This document shows, in pieces, positions 41,585-41,746 of a DNA stretch of 64,000 nucleotides. The stretch's first letter is position 1. Each line of letters starts with the position of its first letter. The notes below the pieces were generated by a model. It was given only the letters and a program-made list of their open reading frames with translations, did no database searches and was not told where the DNA came from. This stretch comes from Escherichia coli (GTDB lineage: Bacteria > Pseudomonadota > Gammaproteobacteria > Enterobacterales > Enterobacteriaceae), in assembly GCF_013315695.1 (NCBI RefSeq), contig NZ_CP054353.1; one strand, written 5' to 3'. The position numbers and the translations under genes are program-made.

Positions 41585-41746
41585 ATGGATGACAAACCAT
41601 TGCAGGCTCTGGCTAATGAACTCAAAACACCGGCTCAAGAAAGTCAGCGTAAGGGCTTCTTCCGACTGCAACAGGTGAAGAAAAACCAGCCCCGCATTAC
41701 CTGTATCCCCGTCAACCATCAGGGGCCCCTGCCTGACATCGCCTGA
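41585..41746 (+). CDS. Candidate small ORF (53 aa), unknown function
   Basis: MDDKPLQALANELKTPAQESQRKGFFRLQQVKKNQPRITCIPVNHQGPLPDIA; purine-rich stretch upstream; inside the islet between cvrA and dadX. Too short for the ORF track. Confidence 0.25.
   Translation: MDDKPLQALANELKTPAQESQRKGFFRLQQVKKNQPRITCIPVNHQGPLPDIA

Follow-up and report, generated by a model that had tools for sequence, protein, structure and literature searches.

The short open reading frame at the cvrA-side edge of the islet that lies between cvrA and dadX (hereafter ORF53) is very probably what decay has left of the 5' end of a transposase gene of the IS256 family (IS1414-like), and not an independent gene, as judged from alignments with a complete element. 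We propose that an IS1414-like element would have come to lie at the cvrA-side edge of an E. coli-specific LRR islet, where the segment 41516-41706 alone survives, and that its transposase gene has suffered an internal in-frame deletion and a 3' truncation. Because the frame survives these losses, translation from the old start would run into unrelated sequence and stop after 53 codons. We infer that the resulting peptide is without a selected function. Some of it may still be produced, in small amounts, should the region be transcribed, because the start region of a sister IS1414 copy in K-12 drives a detected protein, YmgM.

Genomic setting of ORF53

The window, i.e., the whole stretch of Escherichia coli DNA analyzed here (64,000 nucleotides of contig NZ_CP054353.1), is in this region 100% identical to the chromosome of E. 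coli strain MS 21-1. The gene order is ycgR, emtA, ldcA, cvrA, ORF53, the LRR protein gene and then the convergent genes dadX and dadA. The main features, given with their positions in the window, are:

39729..41465, + strand, cvrA (K+/H+ antiporter), upstream of the islet (ORF list and RefSeq annotation of the identical genome)
41569..41578, + strand, purine-rich Shine-Dalgarno-like stretch CAGAAGAAAG, 7-16 nt 5' of the ATG of ORF53 (alignments)
41585..41746, + strand, ORF53, ATG start, 53 aa (ORF listing)
42085..43521, + strand, LRR protein gene, 478 aa, the islet cargo (Pfam LRR_4; NCBIfam SlrP/SspH2 LRR region, E 6e-22)
43689..44759, - strand, dadX, on the far side of the islet (ORF list and RefSeq annotation)

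The coordinates, strand and translation reported for ORF53 in the first-pass annotation of this DNA were reproduced in the ORF listing, and its description of the surroundings agrees with our measurements. The gap between the end of cvrA at 41465 and the start of ORF53 is 119 nt (it had been put at about 120 bp), the LRR gene follows after 338 nt and is, as described, on the same strand (+), and the purine-rich stretch mentioned upstream corresponds to 41569-41578. In the alignments this stretch is the ribosome-binding region of the transposase gene. Here the window allele has GAAAG; IS1414 and most of the other alleles have GAAGG, and the GAAAG form is predicted to be the weaker ribosome-binding stretch.

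The length of ORF53 is statistically unremarkable and no more than chance gives. An ATG-initiated ORF of at least 53 codons was present in 52% of 2000 shuffles of the 619-bp spacer (41466-42084), and a longer ORF (78 codons) overlaps ORF53 on the opposite strand. No match to ORF53 was identified in Pfam or NCBIfam. Its relatives among 5.8 billion proteins are E. coli variants alone (29-86 aa), and those among 1.84 billion representatives are E. coli variants with a single addition, P0089, a 525-aa protein that is matched weakly and over several stretches (25% identity, E 5e-06); no homologue outside E. coli was established in these two very large protein collections. Neither ORF53 nor the LRR gene was found beside cvrA in 80 loci from other enterobacterial species. 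The ORF had been called unannotatable. This holds for protein families, given the lack of a Pfam or NCBIfam match, but not for gene calls, as RefSeq/PGAP lists it in MS 21-1 as hypothetical protein WP_000342120.1. In other strains the PGAP annotation varies: some have the + strand ORF, some have one or another ORF on the - strand, and some have no call at all. Such strain-to-strain inconsistency is typical of non-coding DNA.

Descent from an IS1414-like transposase gene

Two nested features describe the IS-derived sequence:

41516..41706, + strand, IS256-family (IS1414-like) remnant, comprising the left terminal inverted repeat, the 5' UTR and two in-frame transposase fragments
41516..41609, + strand, 94-bp unit that runs from the terminal repeat (GAGCCTG…) to an internal repeat-like …CAGGCTC at codons 7-9 (alignments)

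As the IS1414 reference we used a complete copy from E. coli plasmid NZ_CP059918 (locus L099). Its transposase (402 aa) is annotated as 'IS256-like element IS1414 family transposase' and matches Pfam Transposase_mut (PF00872) with E 1e-118. The element starts with the left repeat GAGCCTGTACATAG…, ends with the right repeat …GAACAGGCTC and is flanked by an 8-bp duplication (ACGCCTCG). By blastn, IS1414 positions 1801-1936 match window positions 41503-41631 (79%, E 6e-26) and IS1414 positions 2137-2195 match 41648-41706 (73%, E 1e-6), and the two blocks are colinear and both in the transposase frame. The first base of the IS1414 left repeat aligns with window position 41516, and the ATG of ORF53 aligns with the transposase ATG in a multiple alignment that includes IS1414, a Klebsiella IS256-family copy and a phage element.

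At the protein level, ORF53 residues 1-13 (MDDKPLQALANEL) match transposase residues 1-13 (MDEKQLQALANEL), and residues 22-41 (RKGFFRLQQVKKNQPRITCI) match transposase residues 84-103 (RDGTFEPQLVKKNQTRITGM). Between the two blocks there is a net loss of 186 bp, which corresponds to 62 codons and preserves the frame. BLASTP, run as single comparisons, aligned ORF53 residues 1-21 with transposase residues 1-25 (E 1e-5) and residues 12-39 with transposase residues 77-101 (E 1e-5). The similarity is too short for significance in whole-database protein searches, and the transposase ancestry rests on the pairwise DNA and protein alignments together with their colinearity.

The homology is observed directly, as is the extent of the remnant. 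No homology was detectable for the last 12 codons of ORF53, and no IS sequence was detectable 3' of 41706. In local alignments over 41707-43700, neither the IS1414 right end nor the reverse-complemented left repeat scored above shuffles, so that a right terminal repeat was not identified in this interval. Present in the window is a terminal inverted repeat at the transposase-start end that matches the IS256 family. Lacking is a complete PF00872 transposase with its catalytic DDE region; codons 1-13 and 84-103 alone are recognizable. When plasmid and phage collections were searched with the islet, 41503-41644 was the sole matching stretch. It matches more than 1000 plasmids, in at least ten named enterobacterial genera, and 19 Stx phages, at 77-90% identity. 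Among the plasmid matches listed, three fall under IS256-family, IS1414 or ISEic2 transposase genes. The IS1414 identity of the remnant is independently confirmed by the curated record of K-12 MG1655, which lists 'insertion sequence:IS1414 (partial)' in the equivalent dadX-cvrA interval (NC_000913.3 1240188-1240289).

It had been suggested, as one possibility, that the ORF is a remnant of a longer gene. These alignments bear that suggestion out and identify the longer gene as an IS256-family (IS1414-like) transposase gene, of which the start codon and two in-frame fragments are kept. They also speak against a pure chance ORF in non-coding spacer, without coding ancestry. ORFs of this length are expected by chance in the spacer, and gene callers disagree over ORF53 between strains, but in-frame alignment with the IS1414 transposase gene takes in the start codon and two more segments. 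Such colinear, in-frame homology implies that ORF53 descends from real coding sequence, and we assign next to no probability to the chance origin.

Status of the reading frame among islet alleles

Together with the window, 14 further islet-bearing loci provided 11 distinct alleles of the interval 41440-42110. The states of ORF53 in these alleles are:

53 codons kept, 5 of 11 alleles
Stop lost, giving 65 codons, 1 of 11 alleles
CGA to TGA at codon 27, giving 26 codons, 4 of 11 alleles
Start region and frame broken by indels, 1 of 11 alleles

Two of the four truncated alleles are further damaged, one by a later frameshift and one by a deletion of ~158 bp that removes part of ORF53 and the sequence after it and leaves the LRR gene in place. 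In a sample of 40 rows spaced evenly through 837 genomes, with class frequencies extrapolated from one fetched locus per class, the truncated classes account for ~21-22 rows (~52-55% of islet-bearing genomes) and the 53-codon form for ~40%. The first-pass annotation had named a lack of conservation of the reading frame in related sequences as one result that would refute its proposal, and the frame is directly seen not to be conserved, its 53 codons being kept in fewer than half of the alleles.

The codon variants of ORF53 comprise 16 non-synonymous, 4 synonymous and 2 stop-affecting changes, and pairwise dN/dS values range from 0.7 to 2.3 (for the window versus L093, dS = 0 and the ratio is undefined). 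Mean pairwise divergence is 4.5% in the IS-derived part of ORF53 and 2.6% in the noncoding IS end (41516-41584). The substitution pattern, which like the state of the frame is a direct observation, looks neutral, with no purifying selection. Some points count against the interpretation of ORF53 as a relic: the first ~31 residues are well conserved among protein variants, the start region is intact in 10 of the 11 alleles, and exactly 53 codons are present in five allele classes. By analogy with YmgM, ORF53 may be a translated, possibly lineage-specific micro-protein.

A stronger claim would make ORF53 a true small-protein gene acting together with the LRR gene, for instance in the part of a regulator or a secretion chaperone, much as the first-pass annotation had proposed in naming a small regulatory or chaperone-like protein. 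Its position 338 nt 5' of the LRR gene on the same strand, its ATG with a Shine-Dalgarno-like stretch, the PGAP calls in several genomes and the conservation of residues 1-31 among variants would all be consistent with such a role. We consider the role highly improbable, as about half of the allele classes no longer have an unbroken frame. The codon-27 stop is found in 4 of 11 alleles and in about half of the spread genome sample, whereas the LRR gene is intact in 9 of 9 alleles. Other alleles of ORF53 carry frameshifts, a loss of the stop or the ~158-bp deletion, the substitutions look neutral (16 non-synonymous versus 4 synonymous), and there is no family match or homologue outside E. coli. 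Furthermore, descent from a transposase accounts for the sequence. The peptide is basic (pI 9.5) and has merely 53 aa. Type III secretion chaperones are acidic proteins of ~130-150 aa, and ORF53 differs from them in length, in pI and in lacking a Pfam or NCBIfam match. The decayed transposase start remains the preferred explanation of ORF53.

The LRR gene and the sequence upstream of it

The product of the LRR gene resembles the LRR domain of SlrP/SspH2 and lacks an E3-ligase domain. Homologues with more than 74% identity were found in E. coli/Shigella alone. The gene is intact in all nine alleles compared, with dN/dS of 0.5-0.8 and dS of up to 0.19, and protein identity between alleles is 74-98%. 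It contains 12-nt and 9-nt periodic coding repeats that encode lysine/glutamate-rich and acidic leucine-rich stretches. Its identification as espR1 was considered and rejected, as the literature puts espR1 at another locus (Z2242, OI-62). In some Shiga-toxin-producing strains (L091, O145:H28 RM12581; L093, O157:H7 F3113) the gene is interrupted by IS3-family elements (IS1203/IS629-like), which constitutes a further decay route of the islet. Just past the LRR stop, at 43553-43590, there is a hairpin with a perfect 11-bp stem (ATAGTGTCCAT…ATGGACACTAT), which is kept in the K-12-type remnant and is probably the terminator of the LRR gene.

The best-conserved part of the islet lies directly 5' of the LRR gene:

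41811..42084, + strand, 274 bp, mean pairwise divergence 1.65%

In the adjoining coding sequence, non-synonymous sites differ by 8-12%. We presume that this stretch may be a constrained promoter or 5' leader of the LRR gene. It has no match in Rfam, and known RNA families gave no match at E <= 1 anywhere in 41000-44000. Close by, at ~41797, most other alleles (L004, L005, L090-L096, L098) have an extra 29 bp (CGCGTTTCAGACTGCTCAGTAACTGTAGT) that resembles the adjacent GGCGTTTCATCCGCCTGTAGCACC and looks like a short tandem duplication/deletion polymorphism. A second indel, of 19 bp, is located near 41928.

These data bear on the idea that the IS remnant has been kept for an action in cis, in which an IS-end promoter reading outward or a leader, or read-through from cvrA, would drive or tune LRR gene transcription and ORF53 would serve as a translated uORF of this transcript. 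We regard this as improbable. On the + strand, no sigma-70-like promoter was predicted in 41300-43800, one allele class with the ~158-bp deletion still keeps the LRR gene, and the most conserved stretch is not the IS remnant but 41811-42084, which lies beside the LRR gene where its own promoter is expected. What speaks for a cis role is that divergence is lower in the noncoding left end of the IS (41516-41584) than in the body of the ORF (2.6% versus 4.5%), that the sister fragment in K-12 is transcribed and translated (as YmgM), and that the cvrA terminator hairpin is split by the islet, while a scan found no terminator-like site on the + strand between cvrA and the LRR gene.

Insertion and erosion of the islet

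The islet is ~2.15 kb in length, and the full insert is present between cvrA and dadX in 834-837 of 5426 complete E. coli genomes. The spacer between the two genes is just ~60 bp, with a single hairpin, in Escherichia sp. (loci L009-L012) and in a B2-type E. coli (L008). The following features mark the edges of the islet:

41476..41498, left half of the ancestral hairpin (…ATCGCCGGATGCGATGCT), from comparison with the ~60-bp spacers of L008-L012
41508..41515, left copy of the 8-mer CGCTGCCT, which abuts the IS terminal repeat (read from the sequence)
43661..43668, right copy of CGCTGCCT, at the dadX edge; the sequence of the ancestral hairpin continues from this point
43669..43688, right half of the ancestral hairpin (CCGATCCGGCTTACAACAAG…), from comparison with L008-L012

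The ~2.15 kb are an insertion, because the halves of a hairpin that is uninterrupted in other Escherichia and in B2-type E. coli flank the islet. The placement of ORF53 at the edge of an inserted islet, which had been assumed from the sequence of the window, is thereby confirmed.

The presence of CGCTGCCT at both edges, together with the 8-bp duplications that IS1414 makes, suggests that the whole islet entered as one IS-driven unit, and the CGCTGCCT pair is a possible target-site duplication from that single event. An LRR effector-like gene may in this way have been carried into the loop of the cvrA/dadX terminator hairpin, by a unit without a recognizable right repeat. If both the 8-bp duplication and the single-unit insertion are true, the empty site would read …GACCGCTGCCTCCGATCC…. 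The single-unit model is weakened in three respects. No right terminal repeat was identified, the right copy of CGCTGCCT standing instead at the far edge of the whole islet, the left 8-mer reads CGCAGCCT in most other alleles, which is a 7/8 match to CGCTGCCT, and no obvious empty-site allele with the same flanks was found in a test that is weak because the search joins nearby pieces.

In most E. coli, the islet is present in eroded form. In the O157-type (L007), 41576-43411 are missing and the last LRR codons remain. The K-12/IAI1-type (IAI1, L002, positions 1612-1713) lacks 41615-43447 and likewise keeps the last LRR codons, which amount to the last ~70 bp of the gene in K-12. At first, the retention of LRR gene 3' ends in K-12-type and O157-type strains pointed to an ancestral islet with repeated losses, a reading that was dropped in view of the ~60-bp hairpin spacer in other Escherichia and B2-type E. 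coli. The hairpin-only spacers of these relatives imply that the islet was inserted and was later eroded by at least two different deletions.

YmgM and the origin of the K-12 spacer

A second small ORF overlaps the IS remnant on the opposite strand:

41337..41537, - strand, YmgM-like ORF of 66 aa that starts within the IS terminal repeat and lies antisense to cvrA at the 3' end of that gene

This ORF matches Pfam PF23693 (YmgM) with E 1.5e-44, the match being limited to profile positions 6-67, and its N-terminus (MTSLLQAQ…) is unlike that of K-12 YmgM. The K-12 protein (MDDKQLQAQAAFSKASQ…, 67 aa) has been seen by SPA-tag immunoblot (VanOrsdel et al., 2018, PMC6001520, Table 1), and ymgM-cvrA is among the pairs recorded as convergent transcriptional overlaps (PMC12288877). 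In species other than E. coli, resemblance to YmgM is limited to the part that is antisense to the cvrA coding sequence. In many genomes (L003, L007, L008, L089-L093) PGAP marks cvrA as an incomplete pseudogene and calls a YmgM-like ORF of 147-189 bp opposite to it. These pseudogene calls appear to be an annotation artefact of the overlap; in the window, the cvrA reading frame is intact.

In K-12 (L104, NC_000913.3 1240188-1240463), the ribosome-binding site and the first eight codons of ymgM (b4740) lie within the partial IS1414. The start of YmgM is therefore transposase-derived, and the rest of its ORF consists of spacer and antisense cvrA. The N-terminus MDDK-x-LQA is common to ORF53 and YmgM because both begin in IS1414 fragments.

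A frameshifted IS1414-family copy carried by plasmids NZ_CP027367 and NZ_CP026754 has a left end identical to the K-12 fragment (0 differences). The window remnant departs from the K-12 fragment at 14-15 of 97 positions, and divergence in the flanks is just 4-5%. The fragment is probably a separate insertion from the remnant in the window. An inversion in situ is unlikely, since the K-12 fragment is identical to the plasmid copy and far from the remnant in the window. An invertible switch was also considered, as comparison of the window with IAI1/K-12 hinted that a ~100-bp segment between short inverted repeats could move a start codon from one ORF to another. This was ruled out: synthetic junctions were made for the two alternative arrangements ('islet plus inverted unit' and 'K-12 deletion plus un-inverted unit'), and of 5426 complete genomes none covered either at >=80%.

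We infer that the K-12 arrangement could have formed in two steps. A second IS would have inserted, inverted, at 43447/43448, and a deletion would then have occurred between the direct repeats GCCTGAGCCTG (at the resident left junction) and GCCAGAGCCTG (in the new copy). Such a course of events would account for the exact coincidence of both K-12 junctions with the ends of elements.

By analogy between the two ORFs, truncated 5' ends of IS1414 may, through their strong starts, seed translated small ORFs, with ORF53 and YmgM as two cases at one locus. If so, the locus would be a natural case of insertion-sequence-driven small-protein birth. The joint proposal, that the islet (41516-43660) is one IS1414-family transposition unit and that IS1414 starts seed new small ORFs, seems to us doubtful.

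Implications

ORF53 is an ordinary mobile-element relic without conserved protein function, and in itself it matters very little. A hypothetical protein in several hundred E. coli genomes can be re-labelled as an IS1414-family transposase fragment. The wider value lies in the light that is shed on YmgM and on the origin of the K-12 spacer. For YmgM a simple evolutionary account is available, in which the start and the ribosome-binding site come from IS1414 and the rest from antisense cvrA and spacer, and this origin is a caution against inferring function from the detection of the protein. The dadX-cvrA spacer of K-12 is the wreck of an LRR-gene islet that is still intact in ~15% of complete E. 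coli genomes.

Comparison with known elements and small proteins

The window remnant has in common with complete IS1414 the left terminal inverted repeat (GAGCCTGTA…), the 5' UTR and the start codon with its ribosome-binding region, and it keeps codons 1-13 and 84-103 of the transposase in the same frame. The 8-mer beside its terminal repeat is a possible counterpart of the 8-bp repeat that flanks IS1414. Unlike IS1414, the window keeps ~190 of ~1316 bp and has neither the catalytic DDE region nor a right terminal repeat nor the embedded astA. The remnant is either old or derived from a diverged family member, as its identity to IS1414 is just 73-79%.

The 98-bp element of Stx phage Nil2 (AJ413274), annotated as a 'putative passively mobilized insertion similar to IS285', begins and ends at the equivalents of positions 41516 and 41609, the limits of the 94-bp unit. 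It differs in that the IS-derived sequence in the window runs another ~100 bp past this unit, which argues for a truncated IS and not a clean miniature element.

The tagged small proteins of E. coli (VanOrsdel et al., 2018, PMC6001520) resemble ORF53 in being encoded by short ORFs with a recognizable ribosome-binding site and in having no known function. Those proteins were detected, whereas ORF53 is known from its sequence and its frame is broken in many strains.

The closest parallel is the partial IS1414 of K-12. It occupies the same cvrA-dadX spacer, comprises the same 94-102-bp portion (from the terminal repeat to codon 9) and encodes nearly the same first residues as ORF53 (MDDKQLQA versus MDDKPLQA). 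It differs in its opposite orientation, by which the transposase start reads into antisense cvrA and gives rise to the 67-aa YmgM.
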